Both the position numbers and the translations under genes were made by a program. Shown one piece after another: positions 11,642 through 62,468 of a stretch of DNA of 64,000 nucleotides. How positions within the stretch are numbered: the stretch's first letter is position 1; each line of letters starts with the position of its first letter. The notes beneath the pieces are model-generated. The model was not told the DNA's origin. It ran no database searches and was given only the letters and a program-made list of their open reading frames with translations. The stretch comes from Brevundimonas vancanneytii (lineage in GTDB: Bacteria > Bacteroidota > Bacteroidia > Chitinophagales > Chitinophagaceae): the NCBI GenBank assembly GCA_943368425.1, contig CALRLC020000006.1, positions 47,893 to 111,892 of the forward strand. The letters run 5' to 3'.

Positions 11642-11710
11642 GCCTCAAGCTGCAAGCTACAGGCGACAAGTAAGAATCAAATCAAAGATCAAAAAATCAA
11701 AAAATCAAAC
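11641..11710. repeat. Solo arms of two families in tandem: AAGCTRC heptamers and the ATCAA(A/G) 7-8-mer array
   Basis: AGCCTCA-AGCTGCA-AGCTACA-GGCGACA at 11641-11668, then aatcaaatcaaagatcaaaaaatcaaaaaatcaaac at 11675-11710. Confidence 0.7.
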
Positions 11711-11718
11711 TTAAAACC

Positions 11719-12000
11719 ATGAATAACGAACAACGCGATGAACAACTTTGGCAAATCGCTAAAGCAAGAGCCGGATTCAAATGGGCACTTTTCAGTTACC
11801 TGATTGTAAACGCATTTTTAGTAGTGGTATGGTTTTTTACATCAGGAATCGACTCTTACTTCTGGCCTATCTGGGTAATGCTAGGATGGGGTGTAGGTCT
11901 GGCTTTTCAATATTTCCACGCATATCACGGTACAAAATTTTTGACCGCAGCTGAAGAGTATGAGAAGTTGAAGCAGAAACAGGATGCAAGTGAAAAGTGA
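11719..12000 (+). CDS. Small 2TM-domain membrane protein
   Basis: Two hydrophobic helices and a YFWPIWVMLGWGVGLAFQYF motif typical of the 2TM family. Confidence 0.75.
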   Translation: MNNEQRDEQLWQIAKARAGFKWALFSYLIVNAFLVVVWFFTSGIDSYFWPIWVMLGWGVGLAFQYFHAYHGTKFLTAAEEYEKLKQKQDASEK

Positions 12001-12062
12001 AAAGTCAAAAGTCAAAAGTCAAAAAAATAAAATCAAGAAATCAAAGATCAAAAAATCAAACT
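11995..12062. repeat. Solo arms: AAAGTSA heptamers followed by the ATCAA family right arm
   Basis: aaagtga-aaagtca-aaagtca-aaagtca, then aatcaagaaatcaaagatcaaaaaatcaaact (12031-12062), identical to 45386-45417 and 62439-62470. Confidence 0.8.
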
Positions 12063-31009: not shown

Positions 31010-33826
31010 ATGGAATACAATTTCAGGGACATTGAAAAGAAATGGCAGAAAGAATGGACTGATACCCATGCCTATCAGGTAAAGAATGACAGCACTAAGC
31101 CTAAATATTATGTGCTGGATATGTTCCCTTATCCGAGTGGAGCTGGATTGCATGTTGGGCATCCGCTAGGTTATATTGCTTCGGATATCGTAAGCCGTTT
31201 CAAAAGGCTCAAAGGTTTCAATGTATTACACCCTATGGGTTATGATGCGTTTGGCTTACCTGCTGAACAATATGCATTGGAGCATGGTGTACATCCTGCA
31301 AAAAGTACCGCCCAGAATATTGATAATTTCAGAAAGCAGTTAGACAATATCGGATTCAGTTATGATTGGAATCGTGAAGTACGAACCTGTGATGCTGATT
31401 ACTATAAATGGACCCAATGGATATTCCTTCAACTCTTCAATAGTTTCTACGATCGTCACCAACAAAAAGCTGTGGCGATTAGTGAACTGATCAACTCTTT
31501 TGAGCAAGAAGGAAACACAAAACATATTTGTCCGGGTAACCCTACGCTGGAATTTACTGCTGAAGCATGGAAAGCTTTTTCTGAAAAGGAACAGCAAGAT
31601 ATTCTGATGGATTATCGTCTTGCTTTTTGTGGTTATGGTGAAGTGAACTGGTGTGAGGCCTTGGGAACTGTATTGGCCAATGATGAAGTAGTGAATGGTG
31701 TGAGTGAACGTGGCGGGCATCCTGTTGTAAAAAAGAAATTGCGTCAGTGGTATTTACGTATCACTGAATATGCTGATCGTTTGTTAAGCGGACTTGATAC
31801 CATCGAGTTCAGCGAAGCGATGAAAGAAATGCAGACGAATTGGATCGGTAAATCTTCGGGAGCGGAGATTAGCTTCAAGCTTCAGGCTGCAAGCCACAAG
31901 CAAGAGCAATCAAGCTTGCAGCTTGAAGCTAGCAGCTTGGAGCTCCTCGTCTACACTACCCGTCCCGATACCATTTTCGGTGTAGACTTTATGGTGGTGG
32001 CGCCGGAGCATGAATTGATCGAAAAAATTACAACAGCTGAGCAGAAAGAAGCTGTAGAGGCATATATCACTTATGTAAAAAGCAGGAGCGATAGAGAGCG
32101 TCAGGCCGAGAAAAAAAATACGGGATGTTTTACAGGAGCTTATGCCATCAATCCTTTTGATGGAAGAGAGATTCCGGTATGGATATCAGAATATGTACTC
32201 GCAGGTTATGGAACGGGAGCTATCATGGCCGTTCCTTGTGGCGATGAAAGGGATTTCAAATTTGCTAAGCATTTCAATATTCCTGTCACCAATATCATAG
32301 GTGATGCATTTGATGGAACAGATGCCAATCCAACCAAAGATGCAGTGCTGAGCAATAGCGGATTTTTGAATGGCATGAAAATGCGCAATGCCATTGAAGT
32401 GGTGATTGAGAAGTTAGAAGCCATGGGTATCGGCAAACGCAAAGTGAATTACAAAATGCGTGATGCGGCTTTCAGTCGCCAGCGTTATTGGGGTGAACCA
32501 TTTCCGATCGTTTGGCAGGATGGTATTGCGTATCCATTGGATGAGAAAGAATTACCACTCTTATTACCCGATGTAGAGAGTTATGGTCCGGGGCCGGATG
32601 GAGAAGGGCCACTAGCCAATTTGAGTGATTGGAAGAGCACAACTTACAATGGTAAACCCGCAGTGCGTGAAACCAATACCATGCCCGGTTATGCAGGTAG
32701 CAGTTGGTATTTCCTGCGTTATATGGATCCTAACAATGAACAGGCATTTTGCGATAAGAAGGTCAGTGATTATTGGAATCAGGTAGATCTGTATATCGGT
32801 GGAACAGAACATGCGGTTGGACATTTATTGTACAGCCGTATGTGGACCAAAGCCTTGTATGACTTAGGTTATATAGGATTTGATGAACCGTTTAGGAAAT
32901 TGTTGAATCAGGGGATGATACAAGGGAGTAGTAGGTTTGTGTATCGAAAAAAAGGGACGCAGACTTTTGTTTCCTCAAACCTAAAGCAAGATATAGAAGT
33001 AGATGAGTTACACGTTGATGTCAACATTGTGGATGGTGTTGAATTAGATATTGACGCTTTCAAGAAATGGCGCAATGGTGAATATGCCAATGCTGAATTT
33101 ATTTTAGAAGATGGCAAATACATCTGCGGCGTTGAAGTCGAAAAAATGTCCAAATCCAAATTCAACACTGTAAATCCGGATACATTGGTGGAGAAGTTTG
33201 GTGCCGATACTTTCCGCATGTACGAAATGTTCCTCGGTCCTGTTGATCAAAGCAAACCATGGGATACCAAGGGTATTGAAGGGGTACATCGTTTCCTGAA
33301 AAAATTATGGCGTTTATTTTTTGATGAGAACAAAGGAAAGATCTGGACGGATGAACAACCCACTGCGGAAGAATTGAAAGTATTACATCGCACCATCAAA
33401 AAAATTGATGACGATACAGAACGTTATAGTTTCAATACAGCTGTGAGCAGCTTTATGATTTGTGTGAATGAATTGAGTGATCTGAAGTGTCATAAAAAAC
33501 AAATCCTTCAGGATGTATTGATTCTCTTGACTCCCTATGCGCCACATATTGCAGCGGAACTCTGGAAGCAATTGGGTAATGAAGGATCTGTACTGGATGC
33601 AAGCTTCCCGACATTCAATGCTGCGTATGTTACTGAGACAAGCAAAGAATATCCCATCAGTATCAATGGTAAAACACGTACCAATATTTCCATTGCATTG
33701 GATGCTACGGAAGATCAGGTAAAAGAGATCGTTCTCTCCAATGAGTTAGTACAAAAATGGATGGAAGGAAAGCCTTTGAAGAAACTCATCTTCGTAAAAG
33801 GAAAAATGATCAATGTAGTCATATAA
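31010..33826 (+). CDS. leuS: Leucyl-tRNA synthetase
   Basis: MFPYPSGAGLHVGH, TTRPDT editing motif and KMSKS. Confidence 0.98.
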   Translation: MEYNFRDIEKKWQKEWTDTHAYQVKNDSTKPKYYVLDMFPYPSGAGLHVGHPLGYIASDIVSRFKRLKGFNVLHPMGYDAFGLPAEQYALEHGVHPAKSTAQNIDNFRKQLDNIGFSYDWNREVRTCDADYYKWTQWIFLQLFNSFYDRHQQKAVAISELINSFEQEGNTKHICPGNPTLEFTAEAWKAFSEKEQQDILMDYRLAFCGYGEVNWCEALGTVLANDEVVNGVSERGGHPVVKKKLRQWYLRITEYADRLLSGLDTIEFSEAMKEMQTNWIGKSSGAEISFKLQAASHKQEQSSLQLEASSLELLVYTTRPDTIFGVDFMVVAPEHELIEKITTAEQKEAVEAYITYVKSRSDRERQAEKKNTGCFTGAYAINPFDGREIPVWISEYVLAGYGTGAIMAVPCGDERDFKFAKHFNIPVTNIIGDAFDGTDANPTKDAVLSNSGFLNGMKMRNAIEVVIEKLEAMGIGKRKVNYKMRDAAFSRQRYWGEPFPIVWQDGIAYPLDEKELPLLLPDVESYGPGPDGEGPLANLSDWKSTTYNGKPAVRETNTMPGYAGSSWYFLRYMDPNNEQAFCDKKVSDYWNQVDLYIGGTEHAVGHLLYSRMWTKALYDLGYIGFDEPFRKLLNQGMIQGSSRFVYRKKGTQTFVSSNLKQDIEVDELHVDVNIVDGVELDIDAFKKWRNGEYANAEFILEDGKYICGVEVEKMSKSKFNTVNPDTLVEKFGADTFRMYEMFLGPVDQSKPWDTKGIEGVHRFLKKLWRLFFDENKGKIWTDEQPTAEELKVLHRTIKKIDDDTERYSFNTAVSSFMICVNELSDLKCHKKQILQDVLILLTPYAPHIAAELWKQLGNEGSVLDASFPTFNAAYVTETSKEYPISINGKTRTNISIALDATEDQVKEIVLSNELVQKWMEGKPLKKLIFVKGKMINVVI
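31871..31944. repeat. AAGCTRC-family inverted-arm element lying in frame inside leuS
   Basis: aagcttc-aggctgc-aagccac-aagc ... gcttgca-gcttgaa-gctagca-gcttg; encodes SFKLQAASHKQEQSSLQLEASSLEL. Confidence 0.8.
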
Positions 33827-41092: not shown

Positions 41093-42127
41093 ATGTCCAA
41101 TCCCAACTTGAACAGAGATCCGATGAACCTTAGTGCAGCTGAAAAGGAGTTTGAGAATGCCATTCGTCCGGCAGAGATCAATGACTTTTCTGGACAGCCA
41201 CAATTGATCGAGAATCTGGTCATCTTTATAAAGGCTGCCAAGCTGCGAGGGGAAGCATTGGATCATATTTTGTTTCATGGTCCACCGGGATTGGGTAAGA
41301 CCACACTCAGCAGAATTGTTGCGAATGAATTGGGGGTGAATATCAAAGAAACATCTGGACCTGTGATTGAGAAGCCGGGTGATCTGGCTGGACTACTCAC
41401 CAATTTGCAACCCAATGATGTGTTGTTCATTGATGAAATACATCGTTTAAGTACAGTAGTGGAAGAGTATTTGTATGCTGCGATGGAAGATTTCAAGATC
41501 GATATCATGATTGATTCCGGTCCGAATGCCAGAAGTGTACAGATCAATTTGAATCCATTTACATTGGTGGGAGCAACTACAAGAAGTGGTTTGTTGACTG
41601 CACCTTTATTGTCGCGTTTTGGGATCAAATCAAGGTTAGAATATTATCACGCAGAGACGCTGAAGAAAATCATTGAACGAAGCGCTGCGATTTTGAATAC
41701 AGGGATTCTTTCGGATGCGGCTTTTGAAATAGCAAGAAGAAGTCGGGGAACACCACGTATTGCCAATGGCTTATTGCGTCGTGTACGAGATTTTGCACAG
41801 GTATTGAATGATGGTAAGATTGATTTAGGAATAACTCAACATGCATTAAAAGCATTGAATGTAGATGAACATGGGTTAGATGAAATGGATAATCGTATTT
41901 TATCAGCCATTATCGATAAATTCAAGGGAGGGCCTGTTGGACTTACTACCATCGCAACTGCAGTGGGTGAAGAAGCGGGAACATTGGAAGAAGTGTATGA
42001 ACCCTTTTTGATACAAGAAGGATTTTTGCAACGAACACCACGCGGAAGAGAAGTGACTTTAAAAGCGTATCAACATTTGGGAAAAGATCGTCCTTCGATG
42101 GGGAATCAATCTGAGTTGTTTAGATAG
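41093..42127 (+). CDS. ruvB: Holliday junction branch migration ATPase RuvB
   Basis: [24 protein letters not shown] and RTPRGR motifs. Confidence 0.97.
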
Positions 42128-42156
42128 ATTGCCACTGAAAGCACAGAGATATACTG

Positions 42157-42191
42157 AAACAGGAGTTCAGATTTAATCTGAACTCCTGTTT
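42157..42191. terminator. Bidirectional intrinsic terminator between ruvB and hemL
   Basis: Near-perfect palindrome aaacaggagttcagatt-t-aatctgaactcctgttt. Confidence 0.8.
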
Positions 42192-42194
42192 TAT

Positions 42195-43484
42195 TTATAA
42201 TATTTCTGAGAGGCTTTCTTTAGTTGCTTGTATAGTTGCATCAAGATCTTCATAAGAGAGTGCATTGTTGAGGAACCAACTTTCAAATGCGGAAGGAGGT
42301 AAGTAGATCCCTTTTTTCAGCATGGCATGAAAGTATTTGTTGAACAATGCATTGTTGGCTGCAGATGCAGATGCAAAATCGGTAACAGCTTTTTCACTGA
42401 AATGAACACTGATCATGGATCCAAATCTGTTGATCACAAATGGAGTTCCGCTTTCTGTGAGTACTTTATTCAAGCCCTCGTGTAAGTAAGCGGTTTTATC
42501 ATTCAGTTCTTGATAGAGCGAAGGATTGCTTTTTAATTCATTCAACAAAGTATACCCGGCGATCATCGCAATAGGGTTACCACTCAAAGTTCCAGCTTGG
42601 TATACATTTCCAAGTGGTGCGATTTTTTCCATGATAGCACGTTTGCCACCAAAAGCACCTACCGGCATACCCGCACCGATCACTTTTCCATAAGTAATAA
42701 GGTCTGCATCTACATTCAATACTTGTTGAGCACCCCCTTGTGCTAAACGGAATCCAGTCATTACTTCATCAAAAATGAATACAATGCCTTCTTCATCGCA
42801 AATGGTTCTGATACCTTCAAGAAATCCTGGTGCAGGTAATATACAACCCATGTTTCCTGCAACGGGTTCAACGATGATGGCAGCGATTTCATTCTTATGG
42901 ATAGACACTAATTTTTTGACTGCTGTTAGATCATTGTAAGCGCAAGTCAAAGTATCGGTAGAAACACCCCCTGTGATTCCTGGTACTGTTTGAATATCAA
43001 AAGTGGCCAATCCACTCCCTGCTTTTACAAGAAATGCATCGGCATGACCATGATAACAGCCTTCGAATTTGATGAATTTATTTCTGCCTGTATATCCTCT
43101 AGCCAAACGTAAGGCACTCATGCAAGCTTCGGTACCACTGCTCACCATTCTGATCAGGTCAACATTGGGTGCCATGCTTTTAATGAGTTCTGCCATTTCA
43201 ATTTCCAACTCTGTAGGTGCACCATACGACGTAGATAAAACTGCTTTTTCCTGAATGGCTTTTACTACCGGCTCATAGGCATGCCCCAAAATCATAGGTC
43301 CCCATGAAGCGATATAATCGATATAACGATTGCCATCAGCATCATAGAGATAAGCACCTTTAGCTTTTTCAATAAAGATGGGCGTACCACCTACACTTTT
43401 AAAAGCTCTTACCGGAGAGTTTACGCCTCCGGGGATAGATTGTTGTGCGCGTTGGAAGAGTGCAATACTTTTTGATGTTTCCAT
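42195..43484 (-). CDS. hemL: Glutamate-1-semialdehyde 2,1-aminomutase
   Basis: [33 protein letters not shown] and GTLSGNP motifs. Confidence 0.97.
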
Positions 43485-43489
43485 ATTTT

Positions 43490-43958
43490 AGTGAGTAGTC
43501 AGTAGTGAGTAGTTAGTTATCTGAGCTAATCATTACTGAGATCATTTTAAAATTTTCTATTATCAAATCTTTTATGCTATCTAGTTTTTCAAGTGTGATA
43601 TATTTAAGATCTACCGCTAATCCAATTGCTGTATCAACCTCAATTAGTGATCCTCTTGCAATTTCAAAAAACCTCTTTCTTTCAAGATTTGATTTGCGAG
43701 AACATCCTTCTGCAATATTCAAATGAACAGAAGATGATGCTCTTCTGATTTGTTGAACTAAAGCAAATCTTTCATCAGTAGGGAAATTTCTTGATAGCTT
43801 ATAGCATTCAAGTACCAAATCCCTAGATTTTAAAAAGACTGATAGTTTTGTATGAGCAAGCTGTAAAAACATAGTTGTCAAAACTAGTCTCTAACAGCGA
43901 TGAAGATTTACGTATTTCCCGCAAAACTAAACTCACTACTCACTATTGACTACTCACT
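43490..43958 (-). mobile_element. Putative cargo-loaded element: AGTGAGT-family inverted arms enclosing a four-helix-bundle gene
   Basis: Arms at 43490-43517 and 43931-43958 match at 26/28 nt as inverted repeats and enclose the gene at 43513-43872. Mobility is inferred, not shown. Confidence 0.55.
43513..43872 (-). CDS. Four-helix-bundle protein (23S rRNA IVS protein/Avd-like family)
   Basis: FPTDERFALVQQIRRASSSVHLNIAEG and RFFEIARGSLIEV motifs. The ATG at 43872 is 6 nt after TAGTTTTG. Confidence 0.9.
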   Translation of the reverse strand: MFLQLAHTKLSVFLKSRDLVLECYKLSRNFPTDERFALVQQIRRASSSVHLNIAEGCSRKSNLERKRFFEIARGSLIEVDTAIGLAVDLKYITLEKLDSIKDLIIENFKMISVMISSDN

Positions 43959-44927
43959 AATCAGCCTGATCGCATCTTTAGCGAAATAGGTTGCAATCAA
44001 ATCGGCGCCTGCTCGTTTAATTGATGTAAGGCTCTCAATGATCGCTTTTTCTTCATTCAGCCAACCCATTTTTGATGCTGCTTTGATCATTGCATATTCA
44101 CCGCTTACCTGATAAGCGCTTACCGGAACTTCTACTGCATTCTTCACTTCGCGGATGATATCCAGATAAGCCATGGCAGGTTTTACCATGACGATATCAG
44201 CTCCTTCTTCAATATCCATTAACGTTTCTTTGATGGCTTCTGTTCGGTTGGCGAAATCCATTTGATACGTTTTTTTATCGCCGAATCCGGGAGCGCTATC
44301 CAATGCATCTCTGAATGGACCATAGAAACATGAGGCATACTTGGCGCTATAACTCATGATACCCACTTTCGTGAATCCACTATCTTCTAAACCGTTTCTT
44401 ATTGCGCCAATTCTACCATCCATCATGTCACTGGGGGCAACAAAATCGCATCCTGCTTCTGCATGACTGATACTCATCTTTACCAAAGCTTCTACTGTTT
44501 CATCATTCACGATCTCGCCGTCTTTTACGATGCCATCGTGTCCGTAAGAAGAGAATGGATCTAAGGCAACATCAGTCATTACTATTATTTCCGGAACAGC
44601 ATCTTTGATCGCTTTAATACTTCTTTGCATCAATCCGTTTTTGTTCCATGCTTCTTTGCCTGTATTATCTTTCAGTTCATCTTTACATTTGATGAACAGC
44701 AGTACACAACGAATACCCATCTCCCACAATACTTTCACTTCTTTTACAGTAAAATCTAAAGACATCCTGTAATACCCCGGCATCGAAGCGATCTCCGTTT
44801 TCACATTTTCTCCTTCATCAATAAATAACGGAGCAATAAAATCAGCCGGCTTCAATATCGTTTCAGCCACCATTGCACGGATAGCATGTGATTGGCGGAG
44901 GATGCGGTTGCGTCGTTGGAGGTACAT
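43950..44927 (-). CDS. hemB: Porphobilinogen synthase
   Basis: DVALDPFSSYGHDG, PSDMMDGR, MSYSAKYAS, MVKP and YQVSGEY motifs. The Cys-cluster Zn site is absent, suggesting a Mg/K-type enzyme. Confidence 0.97.
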   Translation of the reverse strand: MYLQRRNRILRQSHAIRAMVAETILKPADFIAPLFIDEGENVKTEIASMPGYYRMSLDFTVKEVKVLWEMGIRCVLLFIKCKDELKDNTGKEAWNKNGLMQRSIKAIKDAVPEIIVMTDVALDPFSSYGHDGIVKDGEIVNDETVEALVKMSISHAEAGCDFVAPSDMMDGRIGAIRNGLEDSGFTKVGIMSYSAKYASCFYGPFRDALDSAPGFGDKKTYQMDFANRTEAIKETLMDIEEGADIVMVKPAMAYLDIIREVKNAVEVPVSAYQVSGEYAMIKAASKMGWLNEEKAIIESLTSIKRAGADLIATYFAKDAIRLISE

Positions 44928-44932
44928 GAATC

Positions 44933-45415
44933 TTTGATTTTTTGATCTTTGATTTCTTGATTTATTGTTTGGTCTGCTTGATTTTTAAATCAAACGTTTT
45001 ATTCGCGGCAGTAAATATGGCTGTTAGTTCATTTGCTTCTGCTATTAATTGATCTATGATACTATTGGTACTAAGTTTTGTTGCCTTGATGATTTCTAGC
45101 CAATAATGTGACTCGTCGATTTCTTCCAGAACAATTTTTAATTTATGTGCAAAATCAGCTTGTGATTTTGATCTGTTTGTTGCACGATAATTAGCTCCTA
45201 CCGATCCTGAAGAACGTATCAATTGTTTCGCAATTTCAAAGCCAGCAGGTGTTTTCGGCAGACAATCACAAAATAATACAATATCAATATTGAACTGTTT
45301 TGTTCTGTCTTGTAAAGTTTTCCGATTCATTCTGTAAAATTATGCTAGATCACCTCGAACGATACGGAGCGTTTGTTATGAAATAAATCAAGAAATCAAA
45401 GATCAAAAAATCAAA
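44933..45415 (-). mobile_element. Putative cargo-loaded element: perfect 33-bp ATCAA-family inverted repeats enclosing a four-helix-bundle gene
   Basis: 44933-44965 is the exact reverse complement of 45383-45415 (ataaatcaagaaatcaaagatcaaaaaatcaaa). Confidence 0.6.
44962..45330 (-). CDS. Four-helix-bundle protein (23S rRNA IVS protein/Avd-like family)
   Basis: QLIRSSGSVGANYRA, FAHKLKIVLEEIDESHYWLE and EANELTAIF motifs. Confidence 0.9.
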   Translation of the reverse strand: MNRKTLQDRTKQFNIDIVLFCDCLPKTPAGFEIAKQLIRSSGSVGANYRATNRSKSQADFAHKLKIVLEEIDESHYWLEIIKATKLSTNSIIDQLIAEANELTAIFTAANKTFDLKIKQTKQ

Positions 45416-45416
45416 C

Positions 45417-46325
45417 TTATATCCATTCCTTTGGATGTAAGCAAGCTTGCCACAATTCCCATTCTTTTGAACCTTCAGTCGGTTGATGATTGTAATCAAA
45501 TCTTACTGTTGGCGGTAGACTCATCAGAATACTTTCAATTCTTCCATTGGTCTTTAGTCCAAATATAGTTCCACGATCATGCACCAGATTGAATTCTGTG
45601 TACCTGCCCCTGCGTATTTCCTGCCAATATTTATTCTCTGGAGTGAATTCGGTATGTTTTCTTTTCTCAACAATGGGAATATAGCTATCGATAAACGCAT
45701 AACCACAAGCTTTTGCAAATGCCATCCAGAATTGAACGTCTTTACTTTCATCCGGACGTTGGTAATCGTAAAAAATACCGCCAATGCCTCTTCTTTCTTT
45801 ATTACGATGCCAGTTCACAAAATATTCATCACATTCTTTTTTGAATGCCGGATAAAATGCAGGATCGAATGGATCACAAGCATTTTTATACGTCTGATGA
45901 AAGTGAATGGCATCTTCTTCAAATAGATAATAAGGCGTAAGATCAGTACCACCACCAAACCATCTGTCAATCACTTCTCCTTTTTCATCATACAACTCAA
46001 ACATGCGATAATTACAATGTACAGTAGGCACGAAGGGATTATAAGGATGAATCACTAGACTCAATCCACATGCAAACCAACTATGTCCATTGATCTTTAA
46101 TTGTGTTCGCATCAAGTCTGTAACCGGACCAAACACCACAGAAGTATTCACGCCTCCTTTTTCCAACACTGCACCATTGCCAATTACACGTGTGCGGCCG
46201 CCGCCACCTTCTTCTCGGTCCCATTTATCTTCCTGAAATCTAGCTTTTCCATCTACTTTCTCCAGTGCAGCGCAGATATCATCCTGCAGCTGATGAATAA
46301 AGGAGATCCATTGTTCTTTTATCAT
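45417..46325 (-). CDS. hemF: Oxygen-dependent coproporphyrinogen III oxidase
   Basis: PTVHCNYR, WFGGGTDLTP, RGIGGIFYD and RRGRYTEFNLVHDRGTIFGL motifs. Confidence 0.96.
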   Translation of the reverse strand: MIKEQWISFIHQLQDDICAALEKVDGKARFQEDKWDREEGGGGRTRVIGNGAVLEKGGVNTSVVFGPVTDLMRTQLKINGHSWFACGLSLVIHPYNPFVPTVHCNYRMFELYDEKGEVIDRWFGGGTDLTPYYLFEEDAIHFHQTYKNACDPFDPAFYPAFKKECDEYFVNWHRNKERRGIGGIFYDYQRPDESKDVQFWMAFAKACGYAFIDSYIPIVEKRKHTEFTPENKYWQEIRRGRYTEFNLVHDRGTIFGLKTNGRIESILMSLPPTVRFDYNHQPTEGSKEWELWQACLHPKEWI

Positions 46326-46336
46326 AAGTTCGTATT

Positions 46337-46407
46337 AGTGAGTAGTCAGTAGTGAGTAGTCAGTAGGAAAAAGATATTTATTCACTACTGACAATTCACT
46401 ACTCACT
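46337..46407. repeat. AGTGAGT-family inverted-arm element, empty (hemE/hemF junction)
   Basis: agtgagt-agtcagt-agtgagt-agtcagt, spacer ggaaaaagatattt, inverted attcact-actgaca-attcact-actcact. Confidence 0.8.
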
Positions 46408-47432
46408 TAATGTCGAAATTCTTTCACCGCATCTACAAATGCCCTTGCATGATCAACAGGAACATTTGGAAGGATGCCATGTCCAAGGTTGGCGATATGT
46501 CTACCCGGACCAAATGCACGCAGCATGTCTTTTACTTCTTTTTGAATCACAGGGATCGGTGATAATAATTTCGCAGGATCAAAATTCCCTTGCAGTGTAA
46601 CATGATTACCTGCGAACTGACGAGCCAATTCAGGCTTGATACACCAATCAATTCCTAAACCATGAGCGCCAGTAGCGGCCATACTATCCAAGCTATGCCA
46701 TGCACCTTTTGCAAATACGATCGTGGGTACTTCATCTTTCAATGCCGCAACGATCTGACGCATATATTGTAATGACAGGTTTTCAAAATCATGCGGACTT
46801 AATAATCCACCCCAGCTATCAAAAATTTGAACCGTATCTGCACCTGCTTTCACTTGTGCTTTCAGGTAGGCGATTGTAGTATCAGTGATCATTTGTAATA
46901 ACTGGTGTGCCAGTTCAGGTTGTGTATAGCAGAATGCTTTTGCTTCATCAAAAGTTTTAGAACCTTTGCCCTGCACCATGTAACAAAGTAAGGTCCATGG
47001 CGCCCCGGCAAAGCCGATCAATGGAACTCTTCCGTTGAGTTCTTGTTTAATAAGTTTAATGGCATCCATCACATAGCCTAAAGTTTCATCAACATCCGGT
47101 ACACGAACGCGCGCCATGTCTTTATTGGTTTTTATTGGGTCCGGTAGAACAGGTCCTTTACTTTCGATCAACTGTACTTCCAGTCCCATTGCTTGTGGCA
47201 CTACCAGAATATCAGAAAACAAGATAGCAGCATCCACACCAACGATATCTATTGGTTGTAATGTGATTTCACATGCCAGTTCAGGTGTCTGACAACGTTC
47301 AAAGAATCCGTATTTCTCACGCAACACCATGTACTCAGGAAGGTATCGTCCGGCCTGACGCATCATCCACACAGGAGTTCTTTCAGTTGCTTCACCGCGA
47401 AGGGTTCGGAGGAGTAGGTCGTTTTTTAGCAT
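46407..47432 (-). CDS. hemE: Uroporphyrinogen decarboxylase
   Basis: [34 protein letters not shown] and NLGHGI motifs. Confidence 0.97.
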
Positions 47433-47441
47433 AGATTATAA

Positions 47442-47512
47442 AGTGAGTAGTGAGTAGTCAGTAGTCAGTAGGGAGAGATATTTACTCACTACTGACTATT
47501 CACTACTCACTA
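47442..47512. repeat. AGTGAGT-family inverted-arm element, empty (hemD/hemE junction)
   Basis: agtgagt-agtgagt-agtcagt-agtcagt, spacer gggagagatatt, inverted tactcac-tactgac-tattcac-tactcac-ta. Confidence 0.8.
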
Positions 47513-48210
47513 AAATGTTGAATCGCTTTCCTCACCAGTTCTTCTTTTCCTGGTGAGTGAGCTGTGATGATTGAATTGTTTGTATATTTTTTGATGGCTG
47601 CTTCAGTAGTAGTTCCTATGGCAAAGAATACTGTTGAAGTAGCGGCTTTATTTTGATTGAAAAAACTTTCTACTGCACTCGGACTAAAAAATATAATACC
47701 ATTATAAGTAGTATCCATTTTTTGATGGAGTGGGATCGTTTTGTATACGATGATCTCTTCAACACTGATACCTTCTTCTTTTAGTTTGGCAGGTAATTCA
47801 TCTCTTCGCTGATCACCACAGAAGAAGAACACTTCATCTAATTCATCATTGTCTGATAAAATGGTTTCTGCAAGTTCTGATGCATTGTTGCCAGTGCCAC
47901 TAATAGACTGTTCTCCAAAATAGTTGTGTATCAGTTCTTGTGTTGTATTACCCATACAATAAATATTCCATTCCGGCACTTGTTGGTCTAGCATGGTGAT
48001 TACACTTTCTACAGCATTCATGCTTGTAAATACAACCGTGGCATATTGCAAAGCGATTTGTTCAACCTCCTGTTGTGTATCAATGTCCTGAACAGGTTCT
48101 GTATCGATCAAAGGAATGATATCCAACTGAATGTTTTGTTCAGCGGCTTCCTGTATCAGTGTTTCTTTTACAGGTCTGGTAGATAATATTTTCTTTTTAC
48201 TTTCCTGCAT
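47503..48210 (-). CDS. hemD: Uroporphyrinogen-III synthase
   Basis: ILSTRP, VVFTSMNAVES, VYKT, FFSPSAVESF and FAIGTTT motifs; expected operon position. Confidence 0.88.
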   Translation of the reverse strand: MQESKKKILSTRPVKETLIQEAAEQNIQLDIIPLIDTEPVQDIDTQQEVEQIALQYATVVFTSMNAVESVITMLDQQVPEWNIYCMGNTTQELIHNYFGEQSISGTGNNASELAETILSDNDELDEVFFFCGDQRRDELPAKLKEEGISVEEIIVYKTIPLHQKMDTTYNGIIFFSPSAVESFFNQNKAATSTVFFAIGTTTEAAIKKYTNNSIITAHSPGKEELVRKAIQHFSE

Positions 48211-49162
48211 TTCTGATTTCCTGTATGATTTCTTCTGCACCCATCGCTAAGATTTCTTGTCCGGCTTCTGTGCCTATTGCAGCCCCAACGGAAATAGGTA
48301 CGTTAGTGCTGATATCAACTTTCTGACGACCATCAAGAGATACCACATTGCCCTGGAAAAAAATCTGATCACCCTGTATTTGTGCGAGTGCAGAAATAGG
48401 TGTAGCGCAACCGCCCATCAACTGACGTAAAAAATTTCTTTCTGCATGCGCACAGATCGCTGTTTCGTTATGGTGTAGTTGCTGACAGCTATTGAAGATT
48501 TCAGTTTCTCCTTCTCTGCACACAACCATCACGGCACCTTGTGCCGGAGCAGGTAACATCCAATCCAAATCAATTGCTTTTTCCGGACGAAGGTTGATTC
48601 TTTCAAGTCCTGCAGCTGCAAAGATGGCACCTTGCCAATTGCTTTCATCCAGTTTACGCAGTCGGGTATTGACGTTGCCACGTAAGTTATCAAACTGATG
48701 ATTGGGATAACGATTGAGCCATTGTGCTTTACGGCGAACGCTGCTGGTGGCGAATAGTCCATGGTCCATAGTCCATGGTCTATGGACCATGGACCATTCA
48801 CCATTCACATAACCCAGCGCTTCCGGTATATCCTCTTCCTTATAAACAAGAATGTCTTTGTATGATGCACGTTTTAATACTGCAGCTTCTTGTATGCCTT
48901 TAGCAAGTTGTGTAGGCACGTCTTTCATGGAGTGAACAGCAATATCAATTTTGTTACTGAGCAATGCAGCATCTAGCGTTTTAGTGAAGATACCCTGAAC
49001 ACCGATCTCATAAAGTGGTGTAACTAGATCAATATCTCCTTCACTTTTGATGTACACGAGTTCAGAAGCCACTCCTTTTTCTTTCAGGAGTTCTTGCACC
49101 CATGTGGCTTGCCACACGGCGAGCTGACTGTCGCGTGTTCCTATACGTACTACCTTGGTCAT
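48197..49162 (-). CDS. hemC: Hydroxymethylbilane synthase (carries a repeat-derived insertion)
   Basis: RIGTRDSQLAVWQA, DIAVHSMKD, TSSVRR, RGNVNTRL and GGCATP motifs. Confidence 0.96.
   Translation of the reverse strand: MTKVVRIGTRDSQLAVWQATWVQELLKEKGVASELVYIKSEGDIDLVTPLYEIGVQGIFTKTLDAALLSNKIDIAVHSMKDVPTQLAKGIQEAAVLKRASYKDILVYKEEDIPEALGYVNGEWSMVHRPWTMDHGLFATSSVRRKAQWLNRYPNHQFDNLRGNVNTRLRKLDESNWQGAIFAAAGLERINLRPEKAIDLDWMLPAPAQGAVMVVCREGETEIFNSCQQLHHNETAICAHAERNFLRQLMGGCATPISALAQIQGDQIFFQGNVVSLDGRQKVDISTNVPISVGAAIGTEAGQEILAMGAEEIIQEIRNAGK
48754..48808. repeat. ATRGTCY-family inverted-arm element lying in frame inside hemC
   Basis: atagtcc-atggtcc-atagtcc-atggtct-atggacc-atggacc-attcacc-attcac; encodes VNGEWSMVHRPWTMDHGL. 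Confidence 0.82.
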
Positions 49163-62396: not shown

Positions 62397-62468
62397 TTTG
62401 ATTTTTTGATCTTTGATTTCTTGATTCGTCTTTTCATAAATCAAGAAATCAAAGATCAAAAAATCAAA
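62397..62468. repeat. ATCAA-family element, empty (perfect 30-bp hairpin with a 12-nt loop)
   Basis: tttgattttttgatctttgatttcttgatt-cgtcttttcata-aatcaagaaatcaaagatcaaaaaatcaaa; arms identical to those at 44933 and 45386. Confidence 0.88.

Follow-up and report, generated by a model that had tools for sequence, protein, structure and literature searches.

A PF05635 four-helix-bundle gene between inverted heptad arrays in the hem operon of Chitinophagaceae

The window analysed here is a stretch of 64,000 nt (C6:47893-111892 of a genome of 3.49 Mb with 38.9% GC). In it, a gene for a small four-helix-bundle protein lies between hemF and hemB and is enclosed, on the same strand as both neighbours, by the arms of an inverted repeat. 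The features of this cassette and of its two neighbours, in window coordinates, are as follows.

43950-44927, minus strand: hemB (ALAD), downstream neighbour, on the same strand as hemF, with its ATG at 44927
44933-44966, minus strand: 3' arm, AAUAAAUCAAGAAAUCAAAGAUCAAAAAAUCAAA, A-rich with 3 G only, ending 5 nt short of the hemB ATG
44962-45330, minus strand: four-helix-bundle gene 2, 122 aa, PF05635/TIGR02436
45331-45381, minus strand: leader, 51 nt between the 5' arm and the cargo ATG, fast-evolving
45382-45415, minus strand: 5' arm (operon sense), reading UUUGAUUUUUUGAUCUUUGAUUUCUUGAUUUAUU, G/U-rich, with units phased at 7-8 nt, beginning 1 nt past the hemF stop
45417-46325, minus strand: hemF (coproporphyrinogen III oxidase), upstream neighbour, with its stop at 45417-45419

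In an inverted-repeat search of the window, the two arms (44933-44966 and 45382-45415) are 34 nt long, complementary at 34/34 positions and separated by 415 nt. The initial annotation had described a perfect 33-bp inverted repeat; the repeat is real and perfect, but its length is 34 bp, the only correction needed to the facts stated there. The distances from the base of the stem to the hemF stop (1 nt) and to the hemB ATG (5 nt) that had been given there agree with the coordinates, and the interval from the hemF stop to the hemB start is taken up exactly by the cassette. Each arm is AT-rich and repetitive within itself, being an array of four to five phased ATCAAAG-type units. A TAATTTTA box is present in the leader, 4 nt ahead of the cargo ATG, and the TAA stop of gene 2 falls within the 3' arm. 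In the predicted RNA fold, the 34-bp stem closes the cassette in the MFE structure (-115.4 kcal/mol, z = -5.7) and in the centroid structure alike. An Rfam scan of 42000-47500 gave no rRNA or other family, the sole match being a chance miRNA (E=0.98), and no target-site duplication was found at the hemF-hemB element, where the flanks (...TAAG on one side and GATTCATG on the other) are not duplicated.

The gene 2 protein scores 60 bits against PF05635 (cut-off 33.8) and 81 bits against TIGR02436 (cut-off 24). Its closest solved relative is the four-helix bundle of PDB 2RLD (E=7e-15, residues 4-111), and comparison with relatives places the protein under purifying selection (dN/dS 0.02-0.09). 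On the other side of hemB lies a second cassette.

43488-43960, minus strand: second cassette, between hemB and hemL, with gene 1 at 43513-43881

The arms of the second cassette (43488-43518 and 43930-43960) are of the GAGTAGT type, 31 nt long and 94% complementary, and the hemB stop codon sits in its 5' arm. Gene 1 also scores above the cut-off against both profiles (PF05635, 113 bits; TIGR02436, 105.5 bits). The two cargos had been described as divergent subtypes, marked by an NIAEG versus a GANY motif and each with a different arm family. Both motifs are visible in the translations, both proteins match PF05635/TIGR02436, and the ATCAAAG-type arms of gene 2 are indeed distinct from the GAGTAGT-type arms of gene 1.

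Arm copies and PF05635 genes across the genome

The arms are members of a family that is present throughout the genus, at high copy number, as hairpins and solo arrays. The 31-mer AAATCAAGAAATCAAAGATCAAAAAATCAAA occurs five times in the window, at 12030 (plus), 44933 (minus), 45385 (plus), 62397 (minus, with 1 mismatch) and 62438 (plus), as compared with 0 occurrences in 100 dinucleotide-preserving shuffles. Outside the cassette, the window contains the following members of the family.

62397-62468, unstranded: gene-less hairpin with 30-nt perfect arms and a 12-nt loop, 3' of the frr stop and facing a convergent transporter gene
12030-12060, plus strand: solo arm, identical to the 31-mer and with its A-rich strand as the sense strand, ending 10 nt before an ATG
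11669-11706, plus strand: incomplete arm of this family, …AATCAAAGATCAAAAAATCAAAAAATCAAA, with another ATG 13 nt downstream (C6:59563, 5 mismatches)

In the genome as a whole, the count of arm copies comes to ~60 matches within 5 mismatches, of which 13 are exact 31-mers. There are also ~17 pairs that form gene-less hairpins, in which the arms measure 20-34 nt and the loops, unrelated in sequence, 7-61 nt, and several hairpins (e.g. C1:387472 and C6:133135) have compensated changes in both arms. The initial annotation had pointed out the cargo-less hairpin after frr and the identical right arm standing alone, both of which are present, and had read them together with the cassette as empty, solo and loaded states; the genome-wide counts bear out that these are states of one arm family. 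A hairpin-containing query gives 55-122 matches in each of seven Sediminibacterium-like relatives (7/7).

This arm family is not the only one of its kind, as Tandem Repeats Finder reports 708 distinct period-7 arrays of many unit families in the genome. At 11990-12029, a GTGAAAA/GTCAAAA array abuts the solo ATCAAAG arm at 12030-12060, and different array families can thus stack in one spacer. An AAGCTNC-type heptad palindrome (31871-31944) lies in frame within the 938-aa ORF of leucyl-tRNA synthetase (31010-33826), indicating that heptad elements can occupy coding DNA; another heptad palindrome (48754-48808) lies within an uninterrupted 321-aa ORF, a putative hemC (48197-49162, minus strand).

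The genome has 9 PF05635 genes. All 9 are flanked by inverted arrays of 7-nt units, and each locus has a unit of its own. When all inverted repeats of the genome with arms of 20 nt or more are listed, their loops are most often 400-500 nt long, and of the 13 whose loops measure 300-600 nt, 7 contain a PF05635 gene. Put differently, such repeats enclose 7/9 PF05635 genes versus ~6/580 other small genes (Fisher p=1e-11). The other cargos are rare and are enclosed by 22-27-nt arms.

C2:270467-270928: PDDEXK_3 gene (GxxExxY type)
C4:146880-147435: YjbR gene
C2:441924-442558: gene with a weak AMPK1_CBM match

PDDEXK_3 was considered as a second regular cargo and rejected, the association being weak (1 of 3 genomic copies enclosed). 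As a side observation, eight genomes classified in the same genus (G001-G008, 1.3-2.9 Mb) have no hemB; seven of them have no PF05635 gene, and G003 has one. Either the genus label groups very different genomes or these lineages are haem auxotrophs. Synteny was assessed on the loci found with the cargo protein and on a hemB sample from across the family, in place of these eight genomes.

Age and turnover of the hem cassettes

A search with the cargo protein returned 33 loci, 22 of which have the gene between hemF and hemB, with arms in every case. Both hem cassettes are present in Sediminibacterium goheungense DSM 28323 (L008). Across the loci the unit drifts, being TTTGATC in Sediminibacterium and TCTGATG in Ferruginibacter, Segetibacter and others, with the two arms changing in step. 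The flanks of a locus pair better with each other than with foreign flanks (mean -50 vs -39 kcal/mol, permutation p=1e-4), and cargo identity correlates with hemB identity (rho 0.59). In four relatives (8 arm comparisons), the arms are identical at 29-31 of 31 positions in seven comparisons and at 25/31 in the eighth. In the same four relatives, third codon positions are identical at only 54-57 of 110 (49-52%), with dS of at least 1.8 where computed, and the leader is identical at 31-38 of 51 positions (31-45/51 across relatives). As judged from these sequence comparisons, the data show that the arm sequence is conserved far above neutral sites, and that the hemF-hemB cassette is an old resident across Chitinophagaceae genera that has been vertically inherited with many losses. 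Because the arms are conserved despite ~50% identity at third positions, the exact identity of copies points to constraint or continuing homogenisation and not to youth. Of the two explanations for this identity offered in the initial annotation, recent spread is contradicted by the 22 syntenic relatives, the correlation with hemB and the conserved arms; homogenisation, as a continuing process, may still contribute.

Losses and replacements were followed in an unbiased, family-wide sample of hemB from 29 other genera, 28 of which are informative (one locus is cut off at a contig end). hemF and hemB are adjacent in all 28 genera with a readable upstream flank (28/28). Their junction had been expected to be empty or to carry a different cargo in some strains, and this is what we observe: it is cassette-free in 17 genera and has a decayed cassette in 1, an unrelated insert in 1 and an intact cassette in 9. 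The 17 cassette-free junctions are ~18-175 nt long and include one with possible arm relics (L069), and the decayed cassette (L068) keeps arm relics. The unrelated insert (L075, ~900-1500) is ~600 nt long and contains two small ORFs resembling a toxin-antitoxin pair. In the family-wide protein search, several matches have in-frame stops.

The hemB-hemL slot varies even among close relatives in which the hem proteins are 95-98% identical. The window and one relative (L002) have GAGTAGT arms with gene 1; in two others (L001 and L003), the arms are of the GTGAATG/GTCAATT type and the protein is 55% identical to gene 1; in a further two (L004 and L005), the cassette is absent and there is another hairpin only. 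The arms provide the hemB stop codon at this slot, and no target duplication is visible at the swapped slot. The hairpin at cassette-free hemB-hemL junctions (L004, L005, L026 and L014) has CACAGAG/CTCTGTG-type arms.

The hairpin at the frr junction is also old, and its arm family changes between relatives. Among close relatives, the arms at this junction are ATCAAAG, CAGACAT or, in L100, unmatched AAAAGTC/ACTCACT. In three relatives (L096, L097 and L098), the heptad arms enclose a canonical GC-rich hairpin with a T-run, which is terminator-like. The presence of a terminator-like hairpin inside the loop suggests that the arms alone probably do not terminate transcription.

Polarity, pairing and the match between cargo and arm

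Cassettes, hairpins and solo arrays share one polarity, in which the arm on the 5' side is richer in G than in C and the G-poor arm borders start codons. In 50 of 53 distinct cassettes, G outnumbers C in the 5' arm as read in gene sense. Likewise, of 212 hairpins in the genome, 164 have a left arm with G>C and 33 one with G<C, and this asymmetry is seen between tandem (82:17), convergent (60:14) and divergent (19:1) genes. Solo arrays upstream of starts have the G-poor strand in sense (67:16), and those after stops the G-rich strand (114:63). Cassettes are also oriented relative to their neighbours. When the two hem slots are collapsed, 24 independent cassettes remain; 22 of these follow the direction of the upstream gene, 18 of them also matching the downstream gene, while 2/24 are antisense to both neighbours. 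Together, the asymmetries in arm polarity and cassette direction argue for the cassette being read within the host transcript. An own promoter as a general feature of the cassettes was rejected because a box of the form TAnnTTT[GA] at most 22 nt from the ATG is present in only 11 of 76 cassettes, compared with 7.6% of all genes. The rarity of this box is compatible with read-through transcription and is no proof of it.

Selection on RNA pairing would be expected to leave a strand-specific signature, and the mismatches between arms have no wobble bias (24 G·U vs 26 A·C). RNA pairing as the selected property is thus not supported, and the missing G·U bias suggests that complementarity is maintained at the DNA level.

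We also compared cargo clade and arm unit. When 54 cassettes are clustered by protein, all gene-2-like proteins are found with ATCAnnn units, including outside the hem operon (L016, L023, L024, L029 and C7:124506), and gene-1-like proteins go with CTCACTA/TTCACAA/TTGACAA units. In 26 non-orthologous cassettes, protein clade is associated with arm (Mantel rho 0.15, p=0.006) and arms are shared with the nearest protein neighbour (p=0.02). The correlation between clade and flanking unit for which the initial annotation had proposed a cross-genome test is thus present but weak, and arms are frequently unrelated between proteins of 50-60% identity. At the level of genomes, 150 other genera of the family, each represented by one genome, were scored for the array pattern ATCA-N3-4-ATCA-N3-4-ATCA and for presence of the gene-2 clade at E<=1e-30. 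The median number of ATCA arrays is 34 in the 16 genomes with the clade vs 11 in the 134 others (Mann-Whitney p=4e-5, with kinship ignored), and the same comparison with a reversed control pattern gives p=0.09.

ATCA arrays are also abundant in genomes without the gene-2 clade (173 in G067 and 127 in G133), and in the genome studied here, GTGAATG-type arrays are present without a matching cassette. Arrays without a matching gene indicate that the cognate protein is not required for arrays to persist. Moreover, co-inheritance of gene and arms accounts for part of the association between clade and arm. The idea that cargo subtype is matched to arm family therefore stands as a statistical tendency, seen in the Mantel test and in the array counts, and does not extend to the many unrelated arms of moderately similar proteins.

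Relation to known systems and proposed explanation

The organisation of the cassette resembles that of the intervening sequences (IVSs) of 23S rRNA. The IVS in helix 45 of Coxiella burnetii contains an S23p ORF and is excised by RNase III; its stem measures 28 bp, and its 5' end bears tandem GACAGAT heptamers (PMC4990558). The IVSs of C. burnetii, Leptospira and others and the cassette described here have an ORF of the same S23p/PF05635 family in the loop. Both have a long stem made of terminal inverted repeats (34 bp here, 28 bp in Coxiella), tandem heptamers at the 5' end (GACAGAT in Coxiella, related ATCAGAC/ATCAAAG-type units in the gene-2 clade) and a comparable size (~430-480 nt). However, the present cassette is located between protein-coding genes of an mRNA operon and not in helix 25 or 45, and because of this location it is not a 23S IVS. 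Furthermore, the Coxiella ORF has been reported to be decaying (PMC4990558), while gene 2 is under strong purifying selection, and the arms of the present cassette are part of a genome-wide family of gene-less hairpins. Finally, excision by RNase III is known in Coxiella, while the present cassette is known from its sequence and predicted fold.

Three other systems share single aspects of this design. REP/REPIN/BIME elements and MITEs are likewise high-copy intergenic hairpins with compensated arms that are found at gene ends, including those of convergent genes, and the arms described here also occur as many near-identical copies with inverted ends. The arms differ from these elements in consisting of phased 7-nt units of many unrelated families, in their fixed polarity with the G-rich arm first and in having, in some copies, a gene from one specific family inside. 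As neither a target duplication nor a matching transposase (RAYT) was found, the cassette does not conform to the MITE/REPIN type. Avd of diversity-generating retroelements has a homologous small, basic four-helix-bundle fold. Avd models match gene 1 weakly (bAvd 22.5, cut-off 40; DivGenRetAVD 23.5, cut-off 80) and gave no match to gene 2. Since the scores are under the cut-offs and there is no adjacent reverse transcriptase, the only one being on another contig, the cargo is not a DGR Avd; template and variable repeats are also absent. Lastly, heptamer repeats, including TAACTGA repeats, occur upstream of start codons in Beggiatoaceae, Cyanobacteria and Bacteroidetes (PMC4679880). Tandem heptamers have been described as the commonest periodic repeat between prokaryotic genes and have no known function (PMC6344855). 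As in the TAACTGA heptamers and the STRR of cyanobacteria, the arrays described here are intergenic tandem 7-mers that lie in one orientation a few nt upstream of starts, as seen in the 708 period-7 arrays and the G-poor sense strand before starts. Here, by contrast, most arrays occur in inverted pairs and are physically linked to a protein family. A tie of heptamers to the PF05635 family is absent from PMC4679880 and PMC6344855, and in the literature searched we found neither this cassette design outside rRNA nor a link of S23p/IVS proteins to heptamers.

Based on these data, we suggest a model, to which we give roughly even chances, in which the cassette is built like a gene-bearing 23S rRNA IVS and is lodged in an mRNA operon, with the stem insulating the insert and the arms being read by a factor. 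In this model, gene 2 would be transcribed together with the hem operon. In the transcript, the two arms would pair to form a 34-bp perfect RNA duplex that seals off the insert, and this duplex would be a substrate of RNase III, as in the 23S rRNA IVS; an RNase III gene is present in the genome. The hemF stop and the cargo stop both touch the stem. Cleavage, or melting of the stem by ribosomes terminating at these two stops, would separate hemF, cargo and hemB, and the separated hemB would keep an A-rich, unstructured leader. As a consequence of this separation, the insertion would be harmless to the operon. The long RNA stem probably insulates the insert. Complementarity of the arms, by contrast, would be upheld at the DNA level by arm-to-arm or copy-to-copy conversion and not by selection that tolerates RNA wobble.

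The constraint on arm sequence implies a trans-acting reader of the phased units. Some factor, possibly gene 2's own protein, probably reads the arms, and given the clade-arm association at the sequence level, the encoded four-helix-bundle protein appears to be the best candidate. A more general formulation, which we regard as possible but well short of probable, is that four-helix-bundle proteins of the 23S-IVS/Avd family are sequence-specific, clade-specific readers of phased 7-nt units that maintain, regulate or spread the matching hairpins and solo arrays throughout the genome. As part of the same tentative reading, the seed copy would be the gene that lies between sites of its own protein.

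An alternative is a host post-transcriptional regulon, in which each paralogue would act in trans as a reader of one heptad family at gene ends and its own gene would lie between its binding sites for autoregulation, the system being domesticated and not selfish. Such a regulon agrees with the conservation of arm sequence and not of pairing alone, with arm polarity linked to starts and stops, with the associations of clade to arm and of clade to array and with the strong purifying selection on the protein; heptamers just upstream of start codons have also been proposed as regulator sites (PMC4679880). Yet the gene is lost or decayed in many genera in which hem gene order is unchanged, abundant heptad families have no matching gene in the genome and close relatives can have different arm families at an orthologous junction, and we consider this explanation unlikely.

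It is quite unlikely that the cassette is a non-autonomous DNA transposon of the MITE/REPIN type, in which the arms are TIRs moved in trans, the gene is a passenger and empty hairpins are the usual form. The many near-identical copies, high in number in 7/7 relatives, the heptad palindromes in frame inside leuS and the putative hemC, the exchange of cassettes at hemB-hemL and a Y1 transposase gene in the genome all fit such an element. However, a target-site duplication is absent both at the hemF-hemB element and at the swapped hemB-hemL slot, copies at orthologous sites are old and conserved, and the coexisting unit families, dozens of them and unrelated, are more than one end-specific transposase would serve; moreover, the sole Y1 gene is flanked by a different, non-heptad repeat, and passenger status leaves the enclosure of 9/9 genes of one family unexplained. 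This Y1 (IS200/RAYT-type) gene (C15:60765-61109) lies 2 kb from a four-helix-bundle cassette (C15:58331-58645) and adjoins a 27-nt inverted repeat (C15:60235-60563). With one Y1 transposase and a flanking repeat that is not of the heptad type, a RAYT link is unsupported.

We think it very improbable that the elements are scars of break repair, in which the same 7-nt unit was added to both 3' ends before these were joined, a gene being captured or not. In that case, a polymerase adding the units might be helped by an Avd-like protein. The G-first polarity on both strands, which is found in tandem, convergent and divergent contexts alike, could arise in this way, as could the variable unit numbers and loops and the absence of wobble bias and target duplication. 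Against this, no candidate enzyme was found, the single reverse transcriptase having no adjacent four-helix-bundle gene, and solo arrays follow gene polarity, for which selection on expression is the simpler explanation. The reverse transcriptase (298 aa; C4:116228-116752, L093) shares its operon with an HTH gene and an ORF of 343 aa; it is possibly an RT of the defence type and seemingly unrelated to the cassettes. A link between it and the cassettes was considered and is unsupported.

A chance match in low-complexity, AT-rich spacer DNA, to which AT-rich and internally repetitive arms might give rise, has practically no probability and is refuted by the shuffles (0/100 gave a match), by the compensated arm changes across copies and loci, by the conservation of the arms across the genus and by the better pairing of own than of foreign flanks (p=1e-4).

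Two old puzzles meet at this locus, namely the function of the S23p/IVS four-helix-bundle proteins and the reason why tandem heptamers are so common (PMC6344855). The locus is a natural experiment, in that gene order in a housekeeping operon is fixed while the state of its two slots varies over a well-sampled family, from filled or differently filled to decayed or empty, and in that the arm family can be counted genome-wide and compared with the presence of the protein clade. New here are the strong constraint on arm sequence, the G-first polarity in every gene context, the cassettes that follow the direction of host transcription, the lack of wobble bias in arm mismatches and the genome-level association of cargo clade with arm family; together, these results narrow the models. 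If four-helix-bundle proteins of this family are indeed clade-specific readers of phased heptads, this would provide a function for an orphan protein family and for the most abundant unexplained periodic repeat in the intergenic DNA of prokaryotes, and the intervening sequences of rRNA would represent one landing site of the same system.
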